Counted from the stretch's first letter, positions 2,286 through 39,732 are shown. The stretch: DNA of 61,867 bases from a virus (IMGVR_UViG_3300025570_000015:1-61867), one strand, 5' to 3'. Notes: generated by a model not told the origin, from the sequence alone. Numbers and translations are program-made.

Positions 2286-4523
2286 TTAATTCACAAGATT
2301 TGATGCGGCTTCAGATGCAGTTGGTGTAGCTCCGCCAAACAAAGTTACTGATATTTGTTGTGCTAAAAATCTGTTTTGAGCTTCCGTTAAGTCTTGCCCT
2401 TTTATAGCGCCAGATATTAACTTTAATGCTTCTTGTGCAGATCTGCCTTTGCGCTGCGTTAGTGCTGTAGCTATTTCCACAAAAACTTTTTGCTTTTGGC
2501 TTTCAGTAAATTCATCAGTCATTCCAGATATAGCTTGAATTAACCTCTGTGAAGTCTGCAAAGGCTCACCCCTAAGTGCAGTACCAACTACACCGGGTTT
2601 TGTTATTTCTTTGATTGTTTCGTTAATTGCAGTACGTTGTGCTGTTTTGGAATTAACCGCCATAGATGCCTTAACAACTGCTGATTGAGACGCTGCATCT
2701 ATTTGCTTTAGTAGCGCATCCGCTTCAGCTCCCAGTAAAGCTTTTATTTTATTTCTTGAGCTACCAGAACTTAAATCAGTTACAACTTTTATAACTTGTC
2801 TGGCGTCAATGGCTTCTGCCGTAGGGTCAGATGCAATAGCTTTTACGTCATTCATTGCCTTATCAATATAATTGCGCAAGCCTGTCTTTGCAGCTTCAAG
2901 CTGCGCCACTGGTGTGCTTGCATTAAATTGATCTAATACATCTTCAAGTTCTGTGTTTGGTTTAAGAAGGTCAGCACCTAATTTAAATGATCGCTCTTCA
3001 GCTATTTTATCGCCACCAAGTTTTACCGCATCACCATAAACAGGCACGGCGTCAGATACAGCATCACGTAAATCTGATGCTAGTTTATTATAGCTACTAC
3101 CTTTGCCAGTTAATCTGCCAAAATCATCAACATTCTCATATGCAATAGATTGCAAAGATTTCTTCAATTGGTCTAATTGCATAACATTTGGTAGTTCACT
3201 AAATATAATTTTTCCGTTGTCGCCAACTATAACTTTTATTTGTTGATTTGCGGGCATACCACTAATTTGTATAGCCTCATTAGCATCTGCGATTGCCTTT
3301 GATAAAACATTATCTGGGGTTCTATCTAAAACTTTAAATATTTGATCGCCTTTTTCTGAGCTATAATCAATTGCAGATTTCGGGCCTCTAAATGCTTCAT
3401 TATATAAATCGCTTCTTTGGGCTTGCGTTCTTTTTGCAATATTTTCTACAGCAGTTTTAGGGCCAATTTCAGCTTCTCCTAAAACTTCATTAAATGTAGC
3501 GTCCAAGTTTTGACCAGTTCTTGCCATGCGCTCATTTATGGCAGTGCGCGCCACCATTGAAGACTGACCGCCACTTGAGGCGGATGCATCTAACAATGCT
3601 TGCGCCGCAGATCCTGCATCAGCAAGCATTCCCTCATCACCAGCTCTTTGTATAGATGATAGTGCGCTATTAACATCTCCGCCTAGCTCAAATGTGTTCT
3701 TAATTACTCTAGCCGCATTCCCAGATATATTTAAAGCATTTGAGATTAACCCAACGTCAGTTTGTTTTACCCAATCTGCTAAGTTTTTAACACCCTTACC
3801 AACTATAGGTGCTGCTGTACCTAAAACTGCGCCAGCTCCTGCGCCAAACATTACGCCCTGTTTTGCGCTTTCAATTCGCTCTTGCGTTGTTGACCCGTCG
3901 CCATACCCAGATATAAGTCCCTCTGATGCTCCCAATCCAGAACCAGTTGCAACGCCACGCGCAATTGTTGCTGGTAAGGTTTGCGTCAATGGCCCAGCAA
4001 GGGCTGCTGTAGCTTTAGCTGGTAAAGCCGCCAACATAGCCGCAGAGTTAATCACGCCGCTACCCAGACCTATTGCAGCGTTTTCTATTGGACGTTCGCT
4101 TGCCATAGCCGATTGAGCTGCGCGTGTTGCTATTGCCGCTTGTTCTCCAAAAGTTTGACCCATAGCTTCATCAGTGTATTTGCCAGCAAATGGAGTTGCA
4201 CCAAGATATACCGCAGCTCTTGAAGCTAGTGGATATTTATCTAGTACATCTTGGTAAAAGCTAGACTTAGACGCTTGCCCTGCGTCTGTTTCTCCTGCCA
4301 TGATAGTGTTAATTCTATCTTGGTCAGATGTAGAGTATGACGGGCTTACCAAATATCTCTGCCCATCCTTACGCTCAAATATGCGTACATTACCATCCAT
4401 CTTTTTAATAATGCGTGGTAATTTTTTATAGTTAGATTTTGCTTTTTCTAATGCTTCTTCTTGGCTAGACGCAGATATTTCAACTTCATAGCCATCGGGT
4501 GTCATTATTTGAAATTTATCCAT
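2286..4523 (-). CDS. Putative internal virion / DNA ejection protein (large)
   Basis: 745 aa, Ala/Gly-rich helical with hydrophobic Gly-rich segments; last gene of the post-tail block, where podoviruses encode ejection proteins. Confidence 0.6.
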   Translation of the reverse strand: MDKFQIMTPDGYEVEISASSQEEALEKAKSNYKKLPRIIKKMDGNVRIFERKDGQRYLVSPSYSTSDQDRINTIMAGETDAGQASKSSFYQDVLDKYPLASRAAVYLGATPFAGKYTDEAMGQTFGEQAAIATRAAQSAMASERPIENAAIGLGSGVINSAAMLAALPAKATAALAGPLTQTLPATIARGVATGSGLGASEGLISGYGDGSTTQERIESAKQGVMFGAGAGAVLGTAAPIVGKGVKNLADWVKQTDVGLISNALNISGNAARVIKNTFELGGDVNSALSSIQRAGDEGMLADAGSAAQALLDASASSGGQSSMVARTAINERMARTGQNLDATFNEVLGEAEIGPKTAVENIAKRTQAQRSDLYNEAFRGPKSAIDYSSEKGDQIFKVLDRTPDNVLSKAIADANEAIQISGMPANQQIKVIVGDNGKIIFSELPNVMQLDQLKKSLQSIAYENVDDFGRLTGKGSSYNKLASDLRDAVSDAVPVYGDAVKLGGDKIAEERSFKLGADLLKPNTELEDVLDQFNASTPVAQLEAAKTGLRNYIDKAMNDVKAIASDPTAEAIDARQVIKVVTDLSSGSSRNKIKALLGAEADALLKQIDAASQSAVVKASMAVNSKTAQRTAINETIKEITKPGVVGTALRGEPLQTSQRLIQAISGMTDEFTESQKQKVFVEIATALTQRKGRSAQEALKLISGAIKGQDLTEAQNRFLAQQISVTLFGGATPTASEAASNLVN

Positions 4524-4527
4524 ATTA

Positions 4528-5409
4528 TTATCTTCCCGGTACTACACTTGTTACAGAAAATCCATTGCCGTTGCCGTTAGCTTGGTTGTTAACATTTTGC
4601 CCTGCGGTATATTTTAAACCGCTAATTTTAGCTTCTCTTGCTTGTCTTTTCTGCTTTATAACTTCTGGCCCATCATTTGGCTGTGGAAAGTATTGCAATT
4701 CAGCATTGTCAAATTCATCCTTACCAATAGCTGCGCCACTTTCTTGACGTAGTATAGCATTAATAAAATCACGCTTTGCTTGATCATATTTTTGGCCTTC
4801 TGGGGTTCTAAGGAAATTACCAAAAGGTATAGAGCCAGCTATATAATTTCGCATCATAGTGCCTTGATTTTCTAAATCATTTAAAATGTTTTGTGAAAAT
4901 TCTGCTCTTTCAACAAAGCCTTTGGATTGAGCTTGAGCCGCAGTCAAATCTTTACTCATCTCAACTTTTTGTGTTGAGTAAAATTTACCACTGCTATCAA
5001 ATTGACCAGCAAGAGCGCCATATGCTTTCGCCTCTTCTGGCGTGGCTATTCTAAATGTATCTTTAGGCTTCATTCTGTTTGATAAAATTGCACTTACCAC
5101 ATTTGATGCGGCAGACGGATTAGCCTCTATAACAGCAGCCGCGTCTGCGTATCCGTTGTTTTTCAACCACTCAACAGTCTTATTCACATTACCAGCAGCT
5201 ACACGTTGCATACCACGTTCGCGTATTGCTTCGCCTGCACGCATCTCTGGCATAATTAATGGGTCAAGAGCTGCGGCAAAGTTTTGAAATCTGCTCAAAC
5301 CAGTGTTGGGGTTTTGCTCTCTGGCATAGTCAAGTAAGCCGCCTAAACCGCCACGAGACTGACTTGGGTTCATCCTATCTTGAATGATTTCTGCTGGCTT
5401 TTTTATCAT
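4528..5409 (-). CDS. Putative internal virion / ejection protein
   Basis: Start moved to MIKKPAEII by alignment with 41449-42582; shared N-terminus, different C-terminus. Confidence 0.55.
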   Translation of the reverse strand: MIKKPAEIIQDRMNPSQSRGGLGGLLDYAREQNPNTGLSRFQNFAAALDPLIMPEMRAGEAIRERGMQRVAAGNVNKTVEWLKNNGYADAAAVIEANPSAASNVVSAILSNRMKPKDTFRIATPEEAKAYGALAGQFDSSGKFYSTQKVEMSKDLTAAQAQSKGFVERAEFSQNILNDLENQGTMMRNYIAGSIPFGNFLRTPEGQKYDQAKRDFINAILRQESGAAIGKDEFDNAELQYFPQPNDGPEVIKQKRQAREAKISGLKYTAGQNVNNQANGNGNGFSVTSVVPGR

Positions 5410-7761: not shown

Positions 7762-8423
7762 GCGTGCGTTCTCGTAATTGATAATGTTGAGGATGGTATT
7801 GATGGAACGGGTGATGATGCAGCAGTGTAATTTAAAAATCCGTCAGTGTTATCCATCATGTAATTTACTTCTAAATAATCACCAGCCGCCACAGTAAATA
7901 TCTGTGTTCGTGACGTAACAACTGTAGCGTTATTCTGGTGTAATGCAGTTGTCATAGCGCTATTATCTACATTCGTACCATTTATGCTAGGCCAGAAGTA
8001 AAAATGTACTGTGCTTGCGCTTGTTGATGATATTTGCGCAGAAAATGATAATACATATTCCCCAGCCTCTTCAAATACAATTCTACTTGCTGGTGTGCCT
8101 TGTGTGATTTTTGAATTACCAGTTGGTACGTCATAGGTCAGCTTGTATGCTGTATTTGCTAGAGCCGGTGTAACGTCTGATGTTTTAATAAAGTTAGCGT
8201 GTCCACCTTCCATTACAATTTGACGCCACTCTCCACCTTCACTTACAACTGGATATTTGTATACTCGATTCCACATAAGAGTGCCATCTTCTGCTGCATT
8301 CTCATCTCCATTCTGTTGAACTAGCGTGGATCTCGTTTGGGCAATATATGCAACTAATCGGCGACCCCACGTTCGCCAATCATTACCAATTACATCTGGC
8401 GCTCGCTGTTGCTGCTCGCTCAT
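7758..8423 (-). CDS. Tail-associated protein with C1q/BclA-like beta C-terminal domain
   Basis: Beta-rich C-terminus (EAGEYVLSFSAQ...AGDYLEV); follows tail tube B; conserved at 45518. Confidence 0.5.
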   Translation of the reverse strand: MSEQQQRAPDVIGNDWRTWGRRLVAYIAQTRSTLVQQNGDENAAEDGTLMWNRVYKYPVVSEGGEWRQIVMEGGHANFIKTSDVTPALANTAYKLTYDVPTGNSKITQGTPASRIVFEEAGEYVLSFSAQISSTSASTVHFYFWPSINGTNVDNSAMTTALHQNNATVVTSRTQIFTVAAGDYLEVNYMMDNTDGFLNYTAASSPVPSIPSSTLSITRTHA

Positions 8424-9901
8424 CTTCTACCGCCCGGTGTGATGTTTATCCTATTAATACCAACACGCCAATCTCCTAAAGTATTGCCGTCTATCCTTAA
8501 TCTGATCTGTCGCCCTGTAAACCTTAATGAAGTTGGATTTGACATTACAAAAGATCCATATGATCTTTCTGTTCCGTTTGGATAAAACCTTGATTTAAAT
8601 GTTACAGTAACATCGCCCTGCGTCTTTTCATCTGGGATCATCTCAGTTACCGCCATAACATTATCGCCAGTTCCTAATGATATAGACCCGCTCTCTGCAA
8701 ATGGTGACATGCTGCCATAGTTAAACCCAATCTCATGCTCGTATAATTTATTGTCATCTGCTGAAACCCAGAACGGCTGCTTAAACGTACCCATATCAGC
8801 GCCTGCCGTTCTGCCAAGTTCGCCAATGTACCAAGTGCGTTCAACATAATTATAAACAACGTATCTATCATTTTCAGTAGACGAACCTGATGGGTAAAAC
8901 CAGAATATCTCGCCATATGTACTGTTCGGCACAGCAAAAGCCTTGCTAATTTGCGCTCGATTTATATCGCCAAATACATAGTCAGATACTTCACTTTCAA
9001 GCTGTTGAGCTACACCGCCTGCATAAACATAAAACGAGTGATTACCCATCCAGAATGCACCTTGATCAACTGATGCATATGCCTTACTAGCTACCAAACC
9101 ACAGCTAGAGCCAACACGCTCAATACCATAAACGTATGGTGCGCCAATGTAATTTGCAACGTGCGCATCTGTGCTTGTTAATATCAATGTCTGGCCTTGC
9201 ACTCGAACACCAGCCATAATTCTGCCACTTGTGTTTAATTCAATATCACCAGCCTCATTTGTAGCTGCGGGCGTCCATGTCGTGTTATCTTCTCGATCAC
9301 TAAATTGTATTTTACGTTGATTGCCGCCTGCACCAAGTGCAAACACAAATCTTTCTTCAGTGACAACAATTGCCTCATTATTAATTGGCGCGTTTGCCAC
9401 TACAGCAGCAGGGGTAGAATTACTTAATTGCCACTCGTATATCTTCCCATCATCTGGGCTACATGCTAAGAGATACTCGCCCCAATTTTCTAATGACCAA
9501 GTTGTGGCAGGCTGTGTTCTTGCCGTGTCTGGCCTTGCTACGCCGTATGCATAATTGCCATAGAAGCTACCGCCATACCCTGTAAATGCTTCTGCACTTT
9601 CTCTGCCTGATGCAAAACTTGTTGGGGTTATATCGTGGCGCACTCCAGCAGAAGTCCAACTATATAATTTATCATACGTGCCACCAACAATGTATCTGCT
9701 TTGGTCATTAGAAACCCACGTAAGTAAACCGCGCACCTTTGCGTCCGCCGCAGTATCAGATCGGGTGCGCCAGCCACCAATTGGACGCATAGTGCCATCT
9801 ACCCAACGTATTAAATTACTGTCTCGCCAACGATTTGACGATTGTAATTCAGTGCCATTTCGGTAAATGCCGGGTTGTATATCTAGCGGTATTAATGGCA
9901 T
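8420..9901 (-). CDS. Tail tubular protein B / DNA stabilization protein (P22 gp10-like)
   Basis: 493 aa, beta-propeller-like, Trp-rich (EIFWFYPS, YVVYNY...WYIG); conserved at 46177. Confidence 0.7.
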   Translation of the reverse strand: MPLIPLDIQPGIYRNGTELQSSNRWRDSNLIRWVDGTMRPIGGWRTRSDTAADAKVRGLLTWVSNDQSRYIVGGTYDKLYSWTSAGVRHDITPTSFASGRESAEAFTGYGGSFYGNYAYGVARPDTARTQPATTWSLENWGEYLLACSPDDGKIYEWQLSNSTPAAVVANAPINNEAIVVTEERFVFALGAGGNQRKIQFSDREDNTTWTPAATNEAGDIELNTSGRIMAGVRVQGQTLILTSTDAHVANYIGAPYVYGIERVGSSCGLVASKAYASVDQGAFWMGNHSFYVYAGGVAQQLESEVSDYVFGDINRAQISKAFAVPNSTYGEIFWFYPSGSSTENDRYVVYNYVERTWYIGELGRTAGADMGTFKQPFWVSADDNKLYEHEIGFNYGSMSPFAESGSISLGTGDNVMAVTEMIPDEKTQGDVTVTFKSRFYPNGTERSYGSFVMSNPTSLRFTGRQIRLRIDGNTLGDWRVGINRINITPGGRR

Positions 9902-11183: not shown

Positions 11184-11669
11184 CTACATTCCTATACCTT
11201 CAGGCCAATGCTCATCTAACCAGTAATCATGCGGTATAGGTGACATAGCTTCTAGTGTATTAGATGCATCACGTATCTCTTTTATCTTAGTCCAAATAGC
11301 TTGATTAGCATTATACTCAGCTAGTTCTTCTGCTGTCCAATTATCTGAACCTTTTTGAACTAACTCCATTGACCTGTTGGTTATGTTTCTTTGCTTCCAC
11401 TCAGGACAGTAACCAAGTATTAACTCTTGAGCATAATTTCTTACATCGTATTCGTTACCTGTCATGTCTTGCACATACCAATCAGTATTATTCCAGAATA
11501 CTTGTTGATCACTTGTATGTGAAGGTATGTCAGGTGCTACAGTATAACCAGCATCAGCTATCTCAACATCAGTAAATGTTGTGTTGTCAGTACGAGTTGT
11601 ACCGTCTGAGAGAACTATCCTGTGTGGTAAAGTTTTAGGATAGGTTTGATTAATTGTGTATAGTGTCAT
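11184..11669 (-). CDS. Tail fibre-associated / assembly protein
   Basis: 161 aa within the fibre cluster; PEWKQRN...IWTKIKEIRDASN motif resembles fibre assembly proteins. Confidence 0.45.
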   Translation of the reverse strand: MTLYTINQTYPKTLPHRIVLSDGTTRTDNTTFTDVEIADAGYTVAPDIPSHTSDQQVFWNNTDWYVQDMTGNEYDVRNYAQELILGYCPEWKQRNITNRSMELVQKGSDNWTAEELAEYNANQAIWTKIKEIRDASNTLEAMSPIPHDYWLDEHWPEGIGM

Positions 11670-11681
11670 GATATCATTCCT

Positions 11682-12506
11682 TTACCTTGTTAAGCCAAGG
11701 CCATGCTTGCTGTTTAAATAATCTTCTACATTTTCAATTTCTGAAGAAGTTAAATGTCGGTCATATCCTATCATCTCTATAATTTTGCCATTAAAAATAC
11801 TTGCAGTTGCTGAATTTTCTCGTCTACCAATATATGTTCCAGTAGAACCACCACCATGATTGTAAGGGCTATTGGATGAGTACTGTGTAAAATCCATACG
11901 CACAAAGTTTACTAAATCAACCATAAGAAGATGAACTCCTGTAGTAGGAATACCAGTATATCCACTTACTGTCTGATAAGATCCGGCAGTGCCATTTAAA
12001 TTTGGGGAAGAATTGTAAACTGTACCACCAGTATCATAATGTGCATATTGATTATCTGCATTATCAAATCCAAAAAGAACATGACTTGTTGTAGCAGTGG
12101 AACTCACTACTGCATATAACTGCTTAACAACTTTATCTGTGGCATTATACGTCCAATTAGTACCATCAAAATCTACACATTCTTGTGTGTGTGATTGAGT
12201 ATCGTAGGTAGGCTCGTAAGTAGAAACTGTAGTCATATCATAACCGCCTCCACTCTTATCAGCCCATAATCTAACAGTGTCGCCATGCGATGTTACATTT
12301 GTGGTTTTAGATGTGTCTGTAAACAAAGTTGTAATATCAGTAGCATCATACCACATGGTTAATCCACTAGTAATTGAAAGCTGATGAAACTTAGGCCAAG
12401 CATTATTAGTCTCTGCTTCGTATTGCTCTTGTAAACTCCAGACACCACTAGCTGAACTTGTTGTAGGAGTGTTTATTGTTTTAGTTATTAGTCCACTATT
12501 TTTCAT
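11682..12506 (-). CDS. Tail fibre/spike protein with LamG/concanavalin-like domain
   Basis: LTMWYDATD, WADKSG and FNGKIIEMIGYDRHLTSSEI motifs; N-terminal SGVWSLQEQY. Confidence 0.6.
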   Translation of the reverse strand: MKNSGLITKTINTPTTSSASGVWSLQEQYEAETNNAWPKFHQLSITSGLTMWYDATDITTLFTDTSKTTNVTSHGDTVRLWADKSGGGYDMTTVSTYEPTYDTQSHTQECVDFDGTNWTYNATDKVVKQLYAVVSSTATTSHVLFGFDNADNQYAHYDTGGTVYNSSPNLNGTAGSYQTVSGYTGIPTTGVHLLMVDLVNFVRMDFTQYSSNSPYNHGGGSTGTYIGRRENSATASIFNGKIIEMIGYDRHLTSSEIENVEDYLNSKHGLGLTR

Positions 12507-29535: not shown

Positions 29536-29928
29536 TTAAACTTCAAAGCTGTTTATGACTTGCTTTAATAATTCGTTTTCATTGCCAAATGCTTCTGGGT
29601 GTAAACGAGTTGACGTTCTCTTAATTATCTTATCATCGCCACGCACCCAGTAAACTTTGTTTATCTCGTAAGCCACCAGAGCATATATGTCTGATTTTTT
29701 CTTACCTTCGACAGAACTCGTATGCCATCTATATTGATTACGATTTCCTGATTTTGTATTTGCTGTTTTGATTTGCAGGGTCAGCAGCTTGCCGCTTGGC
29801 GTTTTAATATATGCATCATCTATATCATGTTGAACTAGAGTGCATGAAATGCCAACGAAAGCTAACTTAGATAGAGCCAGAAATTCACCAGCTCTACCAA
29901 TGTTATTATTATGATGTGAGCCATTCAT
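29536..29928 (-). CDS. PD-(D/E)XK endonuclease (possible free-standing homing endonuclease)
   Basis: GRAGEFLA...DDAYI...LQIKT...DIYALV motifs. Confidence 0.65.
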   Translation of the reverse strand: MNGSHHNNNIGRAGEFLALSKLAFVGISCTLVQHDIDDAYIKTPSGKLLTLQIKTANTKSGNRNQYRWHTSSVEGKKKSDIYALVAYEINKVYWVRGDDKIIKRTSTRLHPEAFGNENELLKQVINSFEV

Positions 29929-30523
29929 AGATTTTGTTTGTTTCGCCTGTCCGGTCAACAATGCCATGTGTCCCGCCATTGACGCGGCGAGTTATCTTTA
30001 AGATTGTCTCGTCATTCACACCATCATCAGCAATGTCAAACAACTTGTTTTTCTGGAAGAACCATAGCGCAGTATCAAATGCATAATCTGTGGATACCAA
30101 GTCTGGATCTGTCATTATATCTGGCAAGCCCATGTCAGAGCTAAATGCCCTGTAGTTGTTCTTCCCGGTCAATTGCAAAAATCCGCGACCAATATAGACA
30201 GAACCTTCATCAGCTCCATTACCCATGCGCCCACCATAGACCTTGTTTGCTAATGCAGATGGGTTGCGCGAATAACCTTCGCAAGACGCTAAATCAGGGA
30301 AGCGGCTAGGCCATACACGCATCATGCTTTCAGCACTATAATTTAGGTTTTCCCTTGTATGACGCCAGTGACCGCTCTCGTGGCTTGCCTGACCCATCAA
30401 ATGCGCAGCTCTTTCATTAGATAGCTCGTAATGCTCTACGATGGCTTTTGCCGTGTTCTTTCCAAAATGTCCATCAGCACCAACGCCAACTTTCTCTTGG
30501 AGCTTTTTCATTGCTTCACTCAT
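29909..30523 (-). CDS. Endolysin, glycoside hydrolase family 19 with N-terminal PG-binding motif
   Basis: LQEKVGVGADGHFGKNT, HESG, ENLNYS, GRGFLQLTGKNNY and RRVNGG motifs. Confidence 0.88.
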   Translation of the reverse strand: MSEAMKKLQEKVGVGADGHFGKNTAKAIVEHYELSNERAAHLMGQASHESGHWRHTRENLNYSAESMMRVWPSRFPDLASCEGYSRNPSALANKVYGGRMGNGADEGSVYIGRGFLQLTGKNNYRAFSSDMGLPDIMTDPDLVSTDYAFDTALWFFQKNKLFDIADDGVNDETILKITRRVNGGTHGIVDRTGETNKIYEWLTS

Positions 30524-30527
30524 AATA

Positions 30528-30680
30528 CTACTTCTTTTTCTTGGCAGTTTTAGCTGCTTGTTTAAATGCATTTGCAGTTGGCGCGCCTTTTGTACCGGGC
30601 TTGCGCATTTTCTCGCCGCTACCAGCTTTTATGCGCTTACGTTTCTTTGCAATATTTCCATATAATGAATTTTCTGGCAT
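30528..30680 (-). CDS. 50-aa highly basic protein (not in the ORF track)
   Basis: MPENSLYGNIAKKRKRIKAGSGEKMRKPGTKGAPTANAFKQAAKTAKKKK; AGGAG RBS. Confidence 0.65.
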   Translation of the reverse strand: MPENSLYGNIAKKRKRIKAGSGEKMRKPGTKGAPTANAFKQAAKTAKKKK

Positions 30681-30690
30681 TATCTATCTC

Positions 30691-31095
30691 CTATTTTTCA
30701 ATTTTCTTTAGCTTTTCTATTGATCTCATGCCGCCTAATCCGAGCATACCCATCATAACAGTCATCAAGCTACCCATATCAAACTCTGGTAGCTCTGGTA
30801 TATCAACGCCAGCAGCGCTTACACCAAACACGATCAATGGCTGCAATACAAAGTGATAAGCAAATGCCACACCACATACCCAACCGATAAATGGACGCCA
30901 TCCACCTTTGAATAACGAGCCAGACGCAGCTTCAGCTTTGTTTATTTCCAATTGACCCATTAATGCTTGCTGGGCGTGGTTATCAGACATCGTTGCTATT
31001 TCGTGAGCCAACTGTGCCTTCTGGTCTTTGTCTTCAATTACTTTGTCTAACAGGCCAGTTACCGGGCCAATTAAATTACCTACTAGATTCATCAT
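30691..31095 (-). CDS. Holin (3TM / GTA-type holin family)
   Basis: EINKAEA...GGWRPFIGWVCG and MLGLGGMRSIEK motifs. Confidence 0.8.
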   Translation of the reverse strand: MMNLVGNLIGPVTGLLDKVIEDKDQKAQLAHEIATMSDNHAQQALMGQLEINKAEAASGSLFKGGWRPFIGWVCGVAFAYHFVLQPLIVFGVSAAGVDIPELPEFDMGSLMTVMMGMLGLGGMRSIEKLKKIEK

Positions 31096-31408
31096 TTTGC
31101 TTACCTTTCGCTAATGCGTTTGCACCAAAGAATACTGACACTATGCCAGCAACAGACACAAAATATATACTCGCCATTGAACCTAATATTTTGGCGGCTT
31201 CTACTAACCCAAATACATCTGCTAGAATGACCGCAAAGGGGTATAGGAGCATCCCTGACAGGGCGTACCACGTCATTCTGCGTTGTGCATCACGCTGGGC
31301 GTCTTCGTCCTGCATTCGCAAGCGCCTGTCTTCCAGAGCCATGCGATCCCACTCAGATTGATCAATCGTGCCATTGCCATCTACATCAAATTTTTTAAAT
31401 TCATCCAT
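31076..31408 (-). CDS. Two-TM membrane protein with N-terminal EF-hand
   Basis: DVDGNGTIDQSE canonical EF-hand loop; two hydrophobic helices. Confidence 0.65.
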   Translation of the reverse strand: MDEFKKFDVDGNGTIDQSEWDRMALEDRRLRMQDEDAQRDAQRRMTWYALSGMLLYPFAVILADVFGLVEAAKILGSMASIYFVSVAGIVSVFFGANALAKGKQNDESSR

Positions 31409-31416
31409 ATTTTCAC

Positions 31417-31905
31417 CTAATCTGCTAACGGGTTATCAAGCGCTCTCTGCAACTTACCCATCAATTTATCTTCCAGCTCTTTCATTTCGCCACTTTGGGA
31501 AACCCTAACACGTTCACGCTGATTTTCAAAGCGTACCTCGGCAGCGTCTATCATGTCCCTGACTTTGTCTTCAGATTTGCGCACCATGTCCTCAATTCTG
31601 TCGGCCTGACGCTCAATACTCAAAATATCATCACGCAATCCAGTTTTGATCTCTCGCGTGTAATCCATAGTTTGCTGTATATTAGCATCCATTAAATCCA
31701 TCTGAGTTTGATATTCGTTTAAGTCTAGCCCAGCGACCTCTTCTATCTTTTGGTACATAACAAAGCCGCCATACAGGCCACCAACAATAGTAGACACAAA
31801 CGCAAATATAGCCATGATAGAACCAGCCGTAAGCTTCATGCCACCAGCTTTAATTTGGCGGTCTGCCAAGCCATCAATCCCATCTGCTATCTTTGTTGTA
31901 TCCAT
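31417..31905 (-). CDS. Membrane-anchored coiled-coil protein (exported module)
   Basis: One TM segment (IMAIFAFVSTIVGGLYGGFVMY) then a long heptad-rich region. Confidence 0.65.
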   Translation of the reverse strand: MDTTKIADGIDGLADRQIKAGGMKLTAGSIMAIFAFVSTIVGGLYGGFVMYQKIEEVAGLDLNEYQTQMDLMDANIQQTMDYTREIKTGLRDDILSIERQADRIEDMVRKSEDKVRDMIDAAEVRFENQRERVRVSQSGEMKELEDKLMGKLQRALDNPLAD

Positions 31906-32303
31906 TATTCTACAAAGTCCATTTCATTGCCCTTTGCTTGCAGGCTTTTAAGTTGCTCTAGCTCATCACGTAGCATTTGTATCTCAAGCCTACGCTGTGC
32001 CAGCTCTACTTGGTATAGGTCATCGCAGTTAATACGAGACTTGGGCTTGTCTAATGGTATGACTATGCGGGCATATACGCCAATATCTTTTGCCCTGTCG
32101 ATTGTGTCAAAATTAGATAAGACGCCAGTTACGCCATACTCAAGGTTTACTCCGCCACCGACTGCGTTACTGCAATCAAGATTGCCTGCGCGAAACCTGT
32201 CACTCTGGTAGTTCATTGGTGGATTTGGCAGTGATAAACTAAGGTTGCTACTCTCAGCTAATGCAGCGCCGCCGATTATGGATAAAACAAACGCTAATTT
32301 CAT
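31905..32303 (-). CDS. Secreted protein with Cys-flanked beta-hairpin and coiled coil (exported module)
   Basis: Signal peptide (ALA-ES); GVNLEYGVTG and DIGVYARIVIPL strands between two Cys. Confidence 0.6.
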   Translation of the reverse strand: MKLAFVLSIIGGAALAESSNLSLSLPNPPMNYQSDRFRAGNLDCSNAVGGGVNLEYGVTGVLSNFDTIDRAKDIGVYARIVIPLDKPKSRINCDDLYQVELAQRRLEIQMLRDELEQLKSLQAKGNEMDFVE

Positions 32304-32686
32304 TTAGTTTCCTCCATAACTTTAGAGCATATCCTAGATGATATTAGTGGGCTTGAGCTGCGTGGCTTAACCACCTTTGATATTGTGCATAAGTATAATG
32401 GATTATCTAAGTCTGATTTTCGGATATACACCTCAAAATCTTTACGCTCTTTGTAATCAACTTTCATAATTCTATATGTAGTTGAAAATGGCATACTGTT
32501 AAAGTCCAAGTCAAACAGCTCTACCTGATAATATTTAACGTCTTCTCGCTGATTAAACAAAGACATTTGTACCTTCATTACGCCAGATACGTGTGATGGT
32601 TTTAGCTTTGGATAGGCTGGCGTCATCTCATGTGCATGAACTATAGACGCCAAGCCTATGAATAATATGGATAATTTATTTAGCAA
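32300..32686 (-). CDS. Secreted Ig-fold protein, pilus chaperone-like
   Basis: Signal peptide (VHA-HE); MTP...SLFN pattern resembles the N-terminal domain of PapD-type chaperones. Confidence 0.5.
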   Translation of the reverse strand: MLNKLSILFIGLASIVHAHEMTPAYPKLKPSHVSGVMKVQMSLFNQREDVKYYQVELFDLDFNSMPFSTTYRIMKVDYKERKDFEVYIRKSDLDNPLYLCTISKVVKPRSSSPLISSRICSKVMEETK

Positions 32687-33167
32687 TGCATTCTGCTTGC
32701 ACTACAGCCGTATATGTACCGCCAGTAAATGGCTTGGAAGCTGCGTAGGCTGCAGTGCTTGACGTGCTAAACCACGTCGATCCCGCAACGCTTAAATCAA
32801 ACACTGTAGTATTGTCATACACAACTTTTGCACTGTCATACCCAGACATGCCTGCGTCTGATGTTTTTGACACGCTTGTTGAGCCTGTCCAAGCTACGCT
32901 ATCTGTTAAGGCGGGTGATGAACTAAACGAGCTAGGGTGCGTGATGTTTGCCGTATAGTAATCAGCTATTGCTACATCAAATCTAACTACAGGTAAAACG
33001 CCGCCATCACTTGGAGATGTACTTAGTGTACTTGCAGTTGGGTTGCCATAAACCCCAGATTTGTCCGTTTGTATAACGCACTTTGCTTCCACGTTACCTA
33101 CTATGTCCACACTTCCGGCAAGAGCTGGTGAAGCTAGTGCGATAAGTGGTATTGCTAAATATTTCAT
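32676..33167 (-). CDS. Secreted fimbrial/pilin-like subunit
   Basis: Signal peptide (ALA-GS); VDIVGNVEAKCVI N-terminal strand; C-terminal GGTYTAVVQAEC; size and pattern of chaperone-usher pilins. Confidence 0.6.
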   Translation of the reverse strand: MKYLAIPLIALASPALAGSVDIVGNVEAKCVIQTDKSGVYGNPTASTLSTSPSDGGVLPVVRFDVAIADYYTANITHPSSFSSSPALTDSVAWTGSTSVSKTSDAGMSGYDSAKVVYDNTTVFDLSVAGSTWFSTSSTAAYAASKPFTGGTYTAVVQAECIAK

Positions 33168-33174
33168 ATTAACC

Positions 33175-34047
33175 TCACTTGTTGTATTGCATGTCTACCA
33201 TTTGCTCATGCAGGATTTGTTGCGCTAAATTATTTCGTAAGCCTTTTTTGTTATCCGATATATTGCCACCATCTAATGATGCTACGTCATCATATATACC
33301 ACCATTTATTGCAGAATTATAGTACATAGCTATATTCGTTTGCTGGTTCATCTGATTTATAATATTTGATTGCCCTTGCGTTTTAAATAACGTCAATGCA
33401 TTCTCGGATGCTATCAAGCCAAGCTCAATGCGCGTTTCCTTCTCTTCATTATCATCCTCAGATATAATATTACCATCCTCATCGTATTCGTAGTCTTGCT
33501 CAGTGTCTATTGCGTCTAGCACGGCGTCATCTTCCAGAGCTGCGTATACTTCAATTTCTGGTAAATCTGGTACAGGCTTGATGTACCCGGGGCATGATGG
33601 GTTTAACTGCGGGTCAAAACATTCATCTATTCTAAAATTATATATTACCACGGCGTCTTCTACAGTGCCTTCACCCTCAACAGTGATTGAACCATCACCC
33701 CAGTTTTCGATAGGTATATTTGGTATGGGAAAAGTTTTAACGATTGTATTGCTAGGCATTCCAGACCAATCATCAACTTCTTTAAACGTGTAGCCATCGC
33801 CGGCAGAATTAAGATTACCAACGCTAACTTTCATGTCTGCGTCAGTCTCTTTTACAGTTCTATATTTATATGTGAGGCCATTTATATCTAACCCCGGCAC
33901 ATCTGGGAACATGGGCGTCATACTCCAGTTTAATGAGTAGTAAGCCGCATTGCCAGAGAAGCCGTATAAGTATGGCTCAGAGTGCGAGTAAGAGGGATAG
34001 AGTGCTAATAATAACGCCCAACCCAATCTTTGTTTCACTGTTATCAT
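33175..34047 (-). CDS. Secreted acidic protein (exported module)
   Basis: Signal-peptide-like N-terminus; beta domain, CFDPQLNPSCPGY, Asp/Glu-rich linker. Confidence 0.6.
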   Translation of the reverse strand: MITVKQRLGWALLLALYPSYSHSEPYLYGFSGNAAYYSLNWSMTPMFPDVPGLDINGLTYKYRTVKETDADMKVSVGNLNSAGDGYTFKEVDDWSGMPSNTIVKTFPIPNIPIENWGDGSITVEGEGTVEDAVVIYNFRIDECFDPQLNPSCPGYIKPVPDLPEIEVYAALEDDAVLDAIDTEQDYEYDEDGNIISEDDNEEKETRIELGLIASENALTLFKTQGQSNIINQMNQQTNIAMYYNSAINGGIYDDVASLDGGNISDNKKGLRNNLAQQILHEQMVDMQYNK

Positions 34048-34525
34048 TAAACATCCTTTTAACTACGTTTTGCTGATCTCTTTCAATTTCTTCTTTCACA
34101 GCTTCCATTTCCCACGCTAATCTAGCTTTATCTCCAACTAAACCATCTTTGGGGCAAGGCGTGCCAGCATTTAACATAGCGTCGAATACACGTTCATCTT
34201 GGCACATTACAGATACAGCAGCTACCTTCATTCCCATATCATACATGGTTTTAGCATTTTTGAGCTTTTCGCAATTCATATCACGCACTGTTCTGCCGGC
34301 AGATATACCAAGTATTTGCGTTTGCACTGCTCCAGCTACACCTACAGTACATAGGTCAGAGTTGCTTGTGTTTATGTTAGGAGATATTGCAGAAGGTGGC
34401 GGGCTAACTATTGTAGTTTCCATCGAGCCATTTGAAGTTACAGTGCTTTCTGATCGTATTACGTCATCATCTTCTGCGTATGCAGCGCCACCAATGAGTA
34501 ATACGATTAAAGCTATGCGTATCAT
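33977..34525 (-). CDS. Secreted Cys-rich protein (exported module)
   Basis: Signal peptide (AYA-ED); C-TVGVAGAVQTQILGISAGRT-C hairpin; four Cys; hydrophobic C-terminus. Confidence 0.65.
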   Translation of the reverse strand: MIRIALIVLLIGGAAYAEDDDVIRSESTVTSNGSMETTIVSPPPSAISPNINTSNSDLCTVGVAGAVQTQILGISAGRTVRDMNCEKLKNAKTMYDMGMKVAAVSVMCQDERVFDAMLNAGTPCPKDGLVGDKARLAWEMEAVKEEIERDQQNVVKRMFNDNSETKIGLGVIISTLSLLLAL

Positions 34526-34746
34526 TTTCGCTCCACTAACCTGTCTAGCTTTTCCTCAATGCGATCAAACTTACCCATTATTTGGCTAAGCACTTGCGAG
34601 CTATCTGCCTTAGTTACATACTCTTCCCTAGTACGATTTAATAAGATTTGCAATCTTTGCACTTCAAGCACGTAACCACGTAGGACAAAGCCTATAAAAC
34701 CAACGCCTAGCGTTAGTACGCTGCTCCATAGGTCTGTCATTTCCAT
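34522..34746 (-). CDS. Small TM + coiled-coil protein (holin/antiholin-like)
   Basis: N-terminal TM; REEYVTK...FDRIEEKLDRL. Confidence 0.55.
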   Translation of the reverse strand: MEMTDLWSSVLTLGVGFIGFVLRGYVLEVQRLQILLNRTREEYVTKADSSQVLSQIMGKFDRIEEKLDRLVERK

Positions 34747-35370: not shown

Positions 35371-36327
35371 TTATGAAGTTGTGTTGTCAGCAATGATACC
35401 ATTTGCTTTTTCATTTTTAGCGCACAGTGTTAGCTCTGTGGTGACTTGTCTTGTGGAATTATCTCCAGTTTTTGCGAGTGCAACATTCTTTGTTGGACGT
35501 AAAACTGCAACTTCCCACATATTGTCCTGCATGATGAAAACATCGCGTGATCTGTTCTCCCGGCTGGGCATAAATTCAACAGATCCCCAAGGTGTTACAT
35601 ATACAGCAAGTGATTTGATTACTTTCTCATCACCAGCTTGTACTGCTGAACGCTGGTTGTTGTTACCAGTGAAGCCTAAAGCTAGGTTCATTTGGAATGC
35701 AGACAAGTAAACTGTGTCTGGCTTTCCGCCCTCTTCCCAAATTGACTGCATAACGCCATCAAATTTAGTTTGTGAAAATGCTGTTGGCGTACCATCATCA
35801 GTACGCGCATCAGAACCATCACCAGTTGGGTTTGCGCCAGAGTTTCCAGATTGGAAGTCTACGTTTGTAATCATCCATGCTGGAGCGCCTGCAAGTTCGC
35901 GTGCTGTTGATGAATTACCAGCAACTCTTGCGTTGTTTGCGAATAGAGCTTTTTCTATATCGAGCTTCTGCTCTTTCGCCACTTTTAAGGTGTGATAAGC
36001 TAACTCACGACCCCGGCCTGCTTTATTTAGACCTTCATCTGTGTCAGGAACTACAACTGCGTTTTTAAAGATTTGCGTGTAATTGCCTAAACGAGATGTT
36101 GCTGTACGTGCTTCAGCAGTAGTTGCATCGCCTTCAATGTGAGCGTTTGCGCCAGATGCACGTAGTGAATCTGTCTGCCACTCGGTAAAAGTGTTGCGTG
36201 CAGTAGTTTTCTTACACTTAGAATATAGTGGAGTTTCCTCCGGGCTTACGTTGTAAATCACGTCAGATAAATCTTCACGTATCCCCACAGCATCATAGCT
36301 GTCAAATGTGTTGGATGGTTGTGCCAT
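35371..36327 (-). CDS. Major capsid protein (SU10/DUF5309-like)
   Basis: REDLSDVIYNVSPEETP, EWQTDSL, NYTQIF and LAKTGD motifs; downstream of scaffold, followed by a terminator. Confidence 0.88.
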   Translation of the reverse strand: MAQPSNTFDSYDAVGIREDLSDVIYNVSPEETPLYSKCKKTTARNTFTEWQTDSLRASGANAHIEGDATTAEARTATSRLGNYTQIFKNAVVVPDTDEGLNKAGRGRELAYHTLKVAKEQKLDIEKALFANNARVAGNSSTARELAGAPAWMITNVDFQSGNSGANPTGDGSDARTDDGTPTAFSQTKFDGVMQSIWEEGGKPDTVYLSAFQMNLALGFTGNNNQRSAVQAGDEKVIKSLAVYVTPWGSVEFMPSRENRSRDVFIMQDNMWEVAVLRPTKNVALAKTGDNSTRQVTTELTLCAKNEKANGIIADNTTS

Positions 36328-37408: not shown

Positions 37409-37651
37409 CTAGTTCCTTTGTTTGCGATCTAAAATTAACTCTGCCGCCAAAGCAGCGTCGAGTTTAATTTCGATCTGGTTCACTGCACGCAGTATTGCGT
37501 GAGCATCTTCACGTACATCAACGTCTGATGCACTACTGTCAGCGAATAACCTTAGTTGGTCATCGCGTACCTGTTGCATAAAATTTATAAAAGCTGTGTC
37601 GTTTTTTAGACGCTTAGCTTCATCTGCGTTTATGCGTATTTCTGTTGTCAT
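37409..37651 (-). CDS. Small head-associated protein
   Basis: 80 aa between portal and scaffold. Confidence 0.7.
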   Translation of the reverse strand: MTTEIRINADEAKRLKNDTAFINFMQQVRDDQLRLFADSSASDVDVREDAHAILRAVNQIEIKLDAALAAELILDRKQRN

Positions 37652-39732
37652 TGCTGTGGAGTACCTTGTGCCATCTCACCAATCATTCTCACTTTATCTT
37701 GCTCCGCTTGTATGCGTGCAACATCAACTGATGTTCCATACTCACCATATACTTTAGCTGCATCAACGAGCAAGTCTTGCGCCATCTGATCTCGCTTTAA
37801 ATCATTGTCTGCGGCGGCTTTCTGCGCATCTAATTGCATCTTGGCGGCGTCTGATTGCATCTTAACTTGTGCTTTCATTTGTTCTGCCTGCAAGAATGCA
37901 GCATTCGGGTCTTGGCCTTCGCCTTGTTGTGCTTGTGCTGCTTGTTGCTGCTGTAGCATTTGAGCTTCAATTTCTTCAGTAATTGGCGCAAAATATCTGT
38001 CAGCGTTTCGTATTCCAGATACAGCTAATTGATCCGCCAGAGTATTGCGGATGTTAGTCATGCTAACTAAACCATTCATAGGCCCGTATGTCTGGTAAAC
38101 CATAGTCTGCATTTGTAATGCTTGGCTAAGTGCCATAGCTTTCTCTTCTTCACGTCCAGTACCTAATCCAACATTAATGCTAACGTCCATTGAGCTATCC
38201 CATACTCTAGGATCAACTGGCACAAATGTGCCATTCATACGCATCATTTGTTCTTCATCTACATTCTTGTTTGATAAACGTAGCATTATGCCAAACAAGT
38301 CTCTCATGCCATCTGCTAGGTTACGCACCATAACTTCAACTTGGCCTGCTGCGGCTTGCACAGTAGCTTGCACAGCTGCTTTAGTTGTAGATTGCATTGC
38401 ATCTGGGTCTAACCCCATAGAAGCCCGTGAGACGCCTGTTTTAGTCTCTACAAGGCCATCTAGGTAAGTTAATGCACCTAACGTCTGCCCAGCAGTAAAT
38501 GGCACTGACAAGTCTTGTACTGCACCAGCTTGGCGCATTCTTACAATTGCACCAATCTCGTTGTTTAACACGTCATCAATGTTAGCTGCGCCTTCTATGA
38601 CCGCCAAACGTGGATTATTCGTCATTGCTACGTTGTCTAAGATTGAGCGTAATATTGATGTAGCTGCGTCTTGGTCATCCATAACTATTTCAGCTAGTGA
38701 ACGTCCATAGAATGTGTGTGGTTCTGGGTCTATTTCAAACTTAGCAAAAGGCAATTCATCGCATGGCTCAAAGTCTAGCATCTCATATGATGTACCACCG
38801 CATGTAATCTTGTGTAATACGGGTATGCCAGTGCCATCAGCATCTATTCTCATATATGCTTCTGTCACAGTTACATTCTTCATTGACGGGTCTTGCTCAT
38901 CTTCATCAGATGTATCTAAGCTGTAGCCACGTCTTTCATGCACTTCAGCTTCAGTCATCTCTGACCCATTATCAAAGCTGTTTAAATCCAGTACAACTTC
39001 AGGGTCATACCCCATTGCTATTAAATCGCCTGCACGCATTTCCGTTCTGTGAGCCACCAAGTAAGCATCTTTGAGGTTACGTGCATCTCGGTTAATGAAG
39101 AATTCTTCAGGCGGCACGCTTTCAATGCATAGTTCGCCTTTTTCTTGCTGGCGGCTAATCTTTATACTGTGTGAGGGTGTTTCTATTTCCATGCCCATCT
39201 CGTCCATTGAGATGCTCATTTCTGTAGTTTGCTCCAATATGCTTACTTCATCATCATCTGTAAGATATGCAAGTTCATCATCGTTAAGGTCTGTGAACGT
39301 GTATATTTCTGCTTCCGGGTAAGTCATCCAGTATGCTTTTACGATACCTTGTTTCTTCACAAGTGCATCTTGAAATGCATCATTAATTACCCGGTAGCCA
39401 TTTAAGCGTGTAAACTCATGGTGCATAAATTCAGTGGCTTGTTCTGCCATTGCTACATCTTCTGCACCATGTGGAACAAACTCCACTGGCTTTGCTGTAC
39501 TTAGGAATATACGCATTAAGCTTGGCTTCACAGCACGTACGGTATCACGTACTTTTGTAGCTACAACTTTGCTTCTGCCATCTTCATAACCAAGGTCAAC
39601 TTCACCATCATAATATCGCTGTGCTTTAATTCTGTCTTGGCTTATTTCGCTTTCAACAAAATCCACTGCACTTGCAATAGCATCTTGAACTATGCCTTCG
39701 ACTTCTCTACGTGACTTTGGTTTTAATTCCAT
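37648..39732 (-). CDS. Portal protein (right copy)
   Basis: Same length as and highly similar to 191-2275. Confidence 0.9.
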   Translation of the reverse strand: MELKPKSRREVEGIVQDAIASAVDFVESEISQDRIKAQRYYDGEVDLGYEDGRSKVVATKVRDTVRAVKPSLMRIFLSTAKPVEFVPHGAEDVAMAEQATEFMHHEFTRLNGYRVINDAFQDALVKKQGIVKAYWMTYPEAEIYTFTDLNDDELAYLTDDDEVSILEQTTEMSISMDEMGMEIETPSHSIKISRQQEKGELCIESVPPEEFFINRDARNLKDAYLVAHRTEMRAGDLIAMGYDPEVVLDLNSFDNGSEMTEAEVHERRGYSLDTSDEDEQDPSMKNVTVTEAYMRIDADGTGIPVLHKITCGGTSYEMLDFEPCDELPFAKFEIDPEPHTFYGRSLAEIVMDDQDAATSILRSILDNVAMTNNPRLAVIEGAANIDDVLNNEIGAIVRMRQAGAVQDLSVPFTAGQTLGALTYLDGLVETKTGVSRASMGLDPDAMQSTTKAAVQATVQAAAGQVEVMVRNLADGMRDLFGIMLRLSNKNVDEEQMMRMNGTFVPVDPRVWDSSMDVSINVGLGTGREEEKAMALSQALQMQTMVYQTYGPMNGLVSMTNIRNTLADQLAVSGIRNADRYFAPITEEIEAQMLQQQQAAQAQQGEGQDPNAAFLQAEQMKAQVKMQSDAAKMQLDAQKAAADNDLKRDQMAQDLLVDAAKVYGEYGTSVDVARIQAEQDKVRMIGEMAQGTPQQ

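Follow-up and report, generated by a model that had tools for sequence, protein, structure and literature searches.

The viral sequence IMGVR_UViG_3300025570_000015 (hereafter the window: a whole IMG/VR record of 61,867 bases, classed as linear and assigned a CheckV completeness of 100) carries on its minus strand, at positions 31417-34525, a block of six coupled open reading frames (ORFs), referred to here as A182 to F162, or A to F for short (Table 1). An initial annotation had described these genes as an exported, pilus-like module embedded in a lysis cassette, and the coordinates, strand and tight coupling that it gave were confirmed: within the block, neighboring genes overlap by 71 nucleotides (nt) in different frames (A/B), 11 nt (C/D), 4 nt (D/E) and 1 nt (E/F), with a spacer of 7 nt between B and C, while the gene p74 overlaps the start of A by 4 nt and the EF-hand gene follows F after 8 nt. 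The module occurs only once in the window. None of the six proteins falls in a described family; no Pfam, NCBIfam or PADLOC model matched A to F (A to E had no Pfam match even at E ≤ 0.1), and we found no description of the six-gene block in the published literature.

Table 1. The six-gene block and its neighbors in the window, in the order of the minus strand (TM, transmembrane; aa, amino acids).
Feature	Position	Strand	Description
p74	34522..34746	minus	74 aa; N-terminal TM span, charged helical tail; frequent upstream neighbor of the block
A182	33977..34525	minus	Signal peptide, acidic/Ser-Thr-Pro linker, 4-Cys domain (~57-158), short C-terminal hydrophobic anchor
B290	33175..34047	minus	Signal peptide; 2-Cys domain at the N-terminus; acidic linker; C-terminal region with the terminal motif VDMQYNK
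C163	32676..33167	minus	Signal peptide; Ser/Thr-rich; invariant Cys30 (first strand) and Cys160 (last strand); predicted strand acceptor
D128	32300..32686	minus	Signal peptide, single PapD-like Ig domain (predicted); predicted strand donor to C163
E132	31905..32303	minus	Signal peptide, Pro-rich start, 2 invariant Cys, strand-like segments, C-terminal coiled coil
F162	31417..31905	minus	Short cytoplasmic N-terminus, one TM span, periplasmic coiled coil, invariant C-terminus NPLAD
EF110	31076..31408	minus	N-terminal EF-hand and two hydrophobic spans; EF-hand_5 E 5.8e-6, 26.0 bits (cut-off 25.9)
Holin, 3-TM GTA type	30691..31095	minus	PF11351 GTA_holin_3TM E 1.3e-24; phrog_3427 E 1.8e-34
50-aa very basic protein	30528..30680	minus	phrog_16028 E 2.7e-23; no Pfam match
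GH19 endolysin	29909..30571	minus	PF00182 Glyco_hydro_19 E 4.5e-9; phrog_181 E 6.5e-47

Comparison with relatives gave median ratios of nonsynonymous to synonymous substitution (dN/dS) of 0.084-0.149 over the six genes, values that are rough since dS (1.2-2.1) is near saturation, and on the basis of these ratios we regard the six ORFs as real genes under strong purifying selection. They also form a unit, as the initial annotation had supposed: A to F are all found, in unchanged order, in every one of the 91 loci with room for the whole block (these loci include overlapping pieces of one contig; the number of distinct DNA sequences per gene is 77-87), and the order is the same in complete divergent copies with 30-60% identity.

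The products of five of these genes, A to E, bear signal peptides of the Sec type and are thereby marked for export. To score signal peptides we used a home-made rule rather than SignalP, which calls for (i) a charged n-region; (ii) an uncharged h-region of nine residues; and (iii) small residues at -3 and -1. Among unique homologues, the rule was passed by 68 of 68 for A, 72 of 76 for B, 75 of 75 for C, 69 of 70 for D and 67 of 67 for E, as compared with none of 67 F162 homologues and one of 55 other ORFs of the window that served as a control, in agreement with the five signal-peptide-like N-termini first noted. A to E contain two or four cysteines each, invariant among close relatives, and these pairs fit periplasmic disulfides. 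F162, by contrast, has no cysteine and a single hydrophobic span (windows starting at residues 23-33), followed by a charged helical or coiled-coil region that varies among relatives by indels of 7, 11 and 11 residues, which are of heptad and hendecad size; the membrane anchor and coiled coil originally assigned to this protein thus hold. We read the hydrophobic segments of A (C-terminal) and F (N-terminal) as probable inner-membrane anchors.

A182, whose alignment contains 58 invariant columns, with a highly conserved Cys domain and a conserved C-terminal hydrophobic segment, matches phrog_20531 (E 5.8e-14), has no PDB match and gave a best E of 5.3 in the PDB sequence-profile search. B290 has no PHROG match, and its best PDB profile match (E 0.03) covers the acidic stretch only. 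E132 matches phrog_37374 (E 3.9e-8), and its PDB sequence-profile search returned nothing significant (best E 0.44). The A182/B290 overlap itself (33977-34047) is retained in relatives, where both frames are conserved, for example in locus L025 at 8001-8549 and 8479-9348.

In most loci the block lies immediately before an EF-hand gene, a holin and an endolysin. The EF-hand protein, the holin and the GH19 lysin lie downstream of it in the window, as the initial annotation had stated. The holin-like role proposed there for the 74-aa transmembrane protein on the upstream side did not receive support: p74 matches only PHROGs of unknown function or named lipoprotein (phrog_12220, E 3.1e-6; phrog_462, 'lipoprotein', E 2.7e-5), has no Pfam match, and precedes A in 44 of the 93 loci with at least 2.5 kb of upstream sequence. 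Among the 91 loci with at least 2.5 kb of sequence after F, the EF-hand gene comes next in 75, and the holin or GH19 lysin of the type found in the window is present in 68. In eight diverse loci annotated with PHROGs, an endolysin follows the block in seven and the holin phrog_3427 in five; these endolysins belong to three families (phrog_181, phrog_315 and phrog_7/13211), and the linkage, judged from gene neighborhoods, is to lysis as such and not to one cassette. It is this conserved place beside holin and endolysin that points to lysis, rather than to the adhesion or lysogenic conversion previously suggested for these genes. We favor, tentatively and at somewhat less than even confidence, the interpretation that the block encodes a periplasmic complex, produced late, which takes part in the last stage of envelope breakdown at lysis or controls it.

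The same neighborhood could be explained by a role in lysis timing, in which the periplasmic proteins, acting with the EF-hand membrane protein, would detect ions or the condition of the envelope and either restrain or trigger the holin, as an antiholin-like or lysis-inhibition device. The EF-hand protein with its two TM spans, so often the next gene after F, overlaps the start of the holin gene by 20 nt, and the membrane-anchored A and F have large periplasmic parts. However, there is nothing that connects A to F with the holin in physical terms, the known antiholins consist of a single protein each, and a chaperone-subunit-like pair, which C163 and D128 are predicted to form (see below), has no obvious sensing role; of all the explanations considered here, we hold this one to be the least probable.

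The genes upstream of the block differ between loci. The window comprises about 1.65 head-to-tail copies of a phage genome of about 37 kb, as seen from 16 families of direct repeats spaced 35.5-39.9 kb apart, with 67-93% identity between copies. The tandem record is probably an assembly that joins two strains, or else a real tandem, and the stated length of the window is not that of one genome. Most genes, including those for replication and late functions, are on the minus strand, and the plus strand carries six ORFs at 26.6-29.5 kb. The gene order begins with replication genes, an HNH endonuclease and the terminase, followed by virion and tail-fiber genes and ejection proteins; it continues with the portal (37648-39732), the scaffold and an SU10-type major capsid protein (35371-36327), and ends with three small genes, the block A to F, the EF-hand membrane protein, the 3-TM holin and the GH19 endolysin. 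Scans for promoters and terminators did not rise above chance (19 promoters against 19.6 +/- 4.4 expected; eight terminators against 7.4 +/- 2.6). The capsid gene of the window lies upstream of the block in only 20 of 93 loci, and diverse loci have tail fibers, a tail spike or virion proteins before the block, or carry it in a T7-like backbone that encodes an RNA polymerase and an integrase. Since the upstream genes differ in this way, the block moves between phage backbones.

Mobility of this kind, like that of an accessory cassette, would also be expected if the proteins served superinfection exclusion or receptor masking, that is, if late in infection they remodeled or blocked receptors or the route of DNA entry and thereby protected the cell, or spared progeny from binding to debris. 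In several backbones the block follows tail-fiber and tail-fiber-assembly genes, and known phage exclusion proteins (Imm and Sp of T4, Llp of T5, SieA of P22) are small exported or membrane proteins. Yet known exclusion systems consist of one or two proteins that are expressed early or from a prophage, unlike six genes in a late operon; PADLOC gave no match of weight (the best, at E 0.0096 and 0.0013, were both to unrelated models); and the block is linked to lysis genes of three endolysin families and not to a particular type of fiber. We therefore consider exclusion a rather unlikely function.

Structure prediction was applied to C163 and D128, which had been likened to a chaperone-usher pilin and to the Ig domain of its chaperone, respectively. 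The AlphaFold2 (AF2) model of D128, built on a 27-row alignment, is a beta sandwich with a predicted local distance difference test (pLDDT) value of 87.1 and a predicted template-modeling score of 0.77. A Foldseek search of the PDB with this model returned 46 matches at E ≤ 0.001; of the 38 rows listed, 28 come from entries of chaperones of chaperone-usher systems (Caf1M, SfaE, FimC, DraB, PapD, FaeE, SafB), with E 6e-5 to 1e-3 and template-modeling scores, relative to the query, of 0.47-0.60, and the remaining ten are MSP or other Ig-like domains. The chaperone alignments span 108-124 columns of proteins of 153-216 residues, or approximately one of their two domains. D128 is thus predicted to fold as a single PapD-like Ig domain, and the comparison with a chaperone was upheld in this limited form: mature D128, at about 110 residues, has one domain where known chaperones have two. 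A search with D128 among proteins of 236-2000 aa yielded one weak match (E 5.3e-4, 27% coverage), a Foldseek search of BFVD found only generic Ig-like proteins of no known function, and the hhalign probability for D128 against Escherichia coli FimC was 0.2%. The predicted mature N-terminus begins with an invariant histidine, in most relatives within the sequence HEMTPAYP. This residue had suggested a copper 'histidine brace' or CopC-like protein, a possibility that we dropped because D128 has no CopC Pfam match and a PapD-like predicted fold, and because the surface through which it is predicted to contact C163 includes its residues 19-25.

When C163 was modeled by itself with AF2, on a shallow alignment, no usable fold was obtained (pLDDT 37.6). 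Modeled together, C163 (residues 19-163) and D128 (19-128) were predicted to dock, with a score of 0.69 in all three runs as compared with 0.00 for the best of three controls, a prediction that partly supports the pilin-chaperone pairing raised by the initial annotation. The mark for this score is attained by 58 of 80 solved complexes and by two of 110 mismatched pairs; because the alignments were our own, these counts apply here only approximately. The runs agreed in at least 97% of contacts, with partner pLDDT values of at least 86. In the model, residues 27-34 and 150-163 of C163 meet residues 19-25 and 107-122 of D128: the last strand of D128 (~114-122) is placed between two strands of C163, where it runs antiparallel to the first one (27-34) and parallel to the last one (150-163), and the conserved N-terminus of D128 (19-25) also contacts C163. 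This geometry, as predicted, is that of donor-strand complementation.

These features recall chaperone-usher systems (FimC-FimA, PapD-PapA, Caf1M-Caf1, SafB-SafA and the archaic Csu system), with which the pair shares the PapD-like fold and predicted strand donation of D128, the presence of the N-terminal strand of D128 in the predicted interface, the export of both proteins and conserved Cys pairs. Moreover, C163 residues V20, I22, G24 and V26, which are invariant or nearly so among close relatives, alternate in front of the first contacted strand, in what we take to be a resemblance to pilin N-terminal extensions. C163 might therefore be a pilin-like subunit that D128 keeps competent for polymerization by strand exchange into a fiber or surface structure, for adhesion, aggregation or the binding of debris, exported through a host usher or pore or through the opening envelope. 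In addition to the D128 fold, the docking with a parallel strand and the alternating residues, one further lead agrees with such a fiber: in an Atlas feature search with C163, a bacterial cluster with SCPU on 15% of its members ranked 25th (score 0.95, 178 shared features).

Other observations do not favor a pilus or surface appendage. Neither the usher family PF00577, for which an E. coli control was positive, nor PapD_N (PF00345) had a match in the 61.9-kb record, and the genome unit contains no secretin or other large outer-membrane protein, its large ORFs being virion, packaging or replication genes or unmatched. D128 lacks the second chaperone domain. At the sequence level, neither protein belongs to the families concerned: PDB sequence-profile searches with C163 and D128 gave no matches at E ≤ 10; C163 is matched by no Pfam family, Fimbrial (PF00419) included, and the same holds for 14 proteins that its profile search matched distantly or in part (E ≤ 1); against four E. 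coli Fim pilins it reached an hhalign probability of 6.6% (E 0.0055) in an alignment confined to the signal peptide and first strand; and the sole SCPU (PF05229) match in the record, at 12 bits, is off-frame with two stops inside B290 and is spurious. The pair further differs from known systems in being phage-encoded, in a late operon beside lysis genes. Finally, expression with the lysis genes of mostly lytic-looking phages leaves little time to build a surface organelle. We judge a fiber to be about as improbable as exclusion. As a separate observation, five stretches of P0213, a 1609-aa metagenome protein with a type IX secretion sorting tail, weakly resemble residues 18-59 of C163 (E 1.4e-4), a likeness that may be due to chance or to a shared strand motif.

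Returning to a role in envelope breakdown, the products of the last two genes of the block resemble spanins. F162 has the architecture of an inner-membrane spanin (i-spanin), that is, an N-terminal TM anchor and a periplasmic coiled coil, a likeness of architecture only and with no family match. E132 is a small exported, cysteine-containing protein whose gene overlaps that of F by a single nucleotide, and is a candidate outer-membrane partner. In architecture and position E and F therefore resemble the outer-membrane spanin (o-spanin) and i-spanin of the lambda Rz/Rz1 type. In one lineage the likeness goes further: in a contig from a metagenome-assembled genome (MAG), L154, the E132 homologue is a lipoprotein with the lipobox LLSGC; directly after it comes a divergent 180-aa homologue of F162 (hhalign 95%, E 3.2e-8), and then the genes for a holin and a lysozyme. 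The phage region of L154 (371-7355) is T7-like, with an integrase and a single-subunit RNA polymerase, and also contains C and D; the contig ends inside C, so that any A and B genes would lie beyond its end. No competing spanin was detected. With a lipobox rule that does identify the L154 variant of E, none of 43 distinct loci had a lipobox ORF of at least 40 aa near the module and lysis genes, and window positions 25-48 kb contain no credible lipoprotein ORF that could be a classical o-spanin or a unimolecular spanin (u-spanin).

A182 shares a layout of signal peptide and C-terminal TM segment with u-spanins, such as gp11 of T1; roseophages of the cobavirus group also carry spanins of this type, according to PMC6775973. 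The signal peptide of A182 has no lipobox cysteine in any of the 25 aligned sequences, so that it is not the lipoprotein that a u-spanin would be.

Taken together, these features would be consistent with a late-expressed, mobile envelope module of marine phages that works with the lysis cassette. In such a module D128 would hold C163 by donating its last strand, as predicted; E and F would bridge the periplasm in the manner of an o-spanin/i-spanin pair; and the C-D pair and B may be cargo or effectors brought to the outer membrane by the E/F scaffold. After holin and endolysin have removed the wall, the complex would complete, or control, the breakdown of the outer membrane. A more specific version, which we think unlikely as it stands, is that of a new lysis machine in which F and E, with A, form a periplasm-spanning scaffold and D hands over C by donor-strand chemistry to open the outer membrane, thereby replacing spanins.

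A number of observations weigh against assigning the block to envelope breakdown. First, neither the E132 of the window nor any of its 67 unique close homologues has a lipobox, so that its attachment to the outer membrane is putative, and no block protein has sequence similarity to spanin families in PHROG or Pfam. Second, classical spanin genes usually follow the endolysin gene, whereas the block lies upstream of the holin; it also comprises six proteins, when one or two suffice for any known spanin system. Third, the C163-D128 score may reflect likeness to solved chaperone-subunit complexes and not binding. Fourth, the very basic 50-aa peptide encoded between holin and lysin could, by analogy, itself be a cationic outer-membrane disruptor, or be something unrelated. 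Fifth, the block is missing from Octadecabacter Antarctic DB virus 2 (DB2) and Roseobacter phage CRP-701 even though both have related lysis genes; it is therefore not generally required for lysis. Lastly, an A-like gene in phage HTVC202P is located just before the terminase gene and not beside known lysis genes.

Several features of the neighboring lysis genes deserve mention. The 50-aa ORF has a good ribosome-binding site, is 87-100% identical in 23 related loci, and its DNA is the stretch of the window that matches cyanophage and pelagiphage records at 70-76%. As the listed start of the GH19 lysin (30571) overlaps this ORF, its true start is probably the ATG at ~30523, four bases past the ORF's stop. 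The end of the lysin gene is overlapped by 71 nt by a 147-aa ORF (29536-29979, minus strand) that has a weak match to phrog_5018 (E 4.8e-4) and none in Pfam, and that is 65-97% identical in close relatives. An ORF of 33-35 aa with a lipobox-like motif, below the length used in our rule, lies inside the EF-hand gene (31273-31380). In locus L062 an endonuclease gene (11510-11905; phrog_452, E 8.9e-50), which looks like a mobile insertion, separates the EF-hand gene from the holin.

Relatives of the block abound in viral contigs of marine origin. In IMG/VR, relatives of A182 occur in at least 587 stretches among 595 matched, and those of C163 in 109 of 126 matched stretches; the C163 profile matches 2328 of 8000 scored metagenome proteins at E ≤ 0.01 and, when compared with 1.84 billion representative sequences, gave 100 matches at E ≤ 0.001, about ten of them full length. 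The suggestion in the initial annotation that similar clusters occur in marine gammaproteobacterial genomes was not borne out: a scan of 185,579 species genomes revealed seven loci, all on short MAG contigs from six unrelated taxa, those with annotation being phage-like, and among 401 genomes of one phylum the C163 profile was found in one, namely the MAG from which the search had started. The members of eight distant C163 clusters are all on metagenome contigs of at most 89,826 bases. An origin of the block in a host chromosome is thus unsupported by either the mixed taxa of the seven MAG contigs or the contigs of the distant clusters.

Cultured phages carry parts of the block. C163 and D128 have no match in 50,697 GenBank phage records, while the A182 Cys domain matches 13 of them, including six Pelagibacter phages. 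The closest cultured relative of the window's phage, DB2 (capsid 69.3% identical), has the capsid gene, two small genes and a lysozyme, with no block. In Pelagibacter phage HTVC115P, A, F and probably B have counterparts in gp54, gp49 and gp53, respectively, which keep the order of the block and share one strand: gp54 is an A homologue (tblastn E 3e-27) with signal peptide and C-terminal anchor; gp53, an acidic protein of 466 aa whose start overlaps gp54 just as B overlaps A, and whose C-terminus shares the terminal motif of B290 (hhalign probability 27.6%, E 6.5e-4), is probably a B homologue; and gp49 is an F homologue (tblastn E 2e-9) with the same NPL tail. In contrast to the block, HTVC115P has three small unrelated genes (gp52-gp50) in place of C, D and E, and no lysis genes are annotated nearby. 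A freshwater podovirus (MW202481, L158) encodes an A-like ORF of 168 aa (2848-3354) and an F-like ORF of 135 aa (4191-4598; hhalign 76%, E 2.3e-5). After these come an SprT-like gene and an ORF whose likeness to the holin of the window is by eye only, with a lysozyme as the third gene; the A- and F-like ORFs are unannotated in GenBank, where short ORFs of the opposite strand are annotated instead. Other candidates were set aside: gp26 of HTVC202P is like F by eye only (hhalign probability 0.5%), and the assignments of HTVC202P gp25 as a B homologue, and of CRP-810 gp52 and gp55 and a 368-aa protein of MW202481 as F or B homologues, were unsupported. As HTVC115P has counterparts of A, B and F without C, D and E, the block is composite, with A, B and F as a wider frame and C, D and E as an insert so far seen only in uncultured phages.

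Little is known of how phages that infect the dominant marine bacteria complete lysis. If the block does act in the final breakdown of the envelope, it would represent a new solution to the disruption of the outer membrane and would put the chaperone-subunit fold to a new use beyond pili. Should it instead serve a fiber, exclusion or the timing of lysis, abundant ocean viruses would still be investing heavily in a set of genes that is strongly selected and unstudied. In either case, the relatives of A, B and F in the cultured phage HTVC115P may offer an experimental way in.

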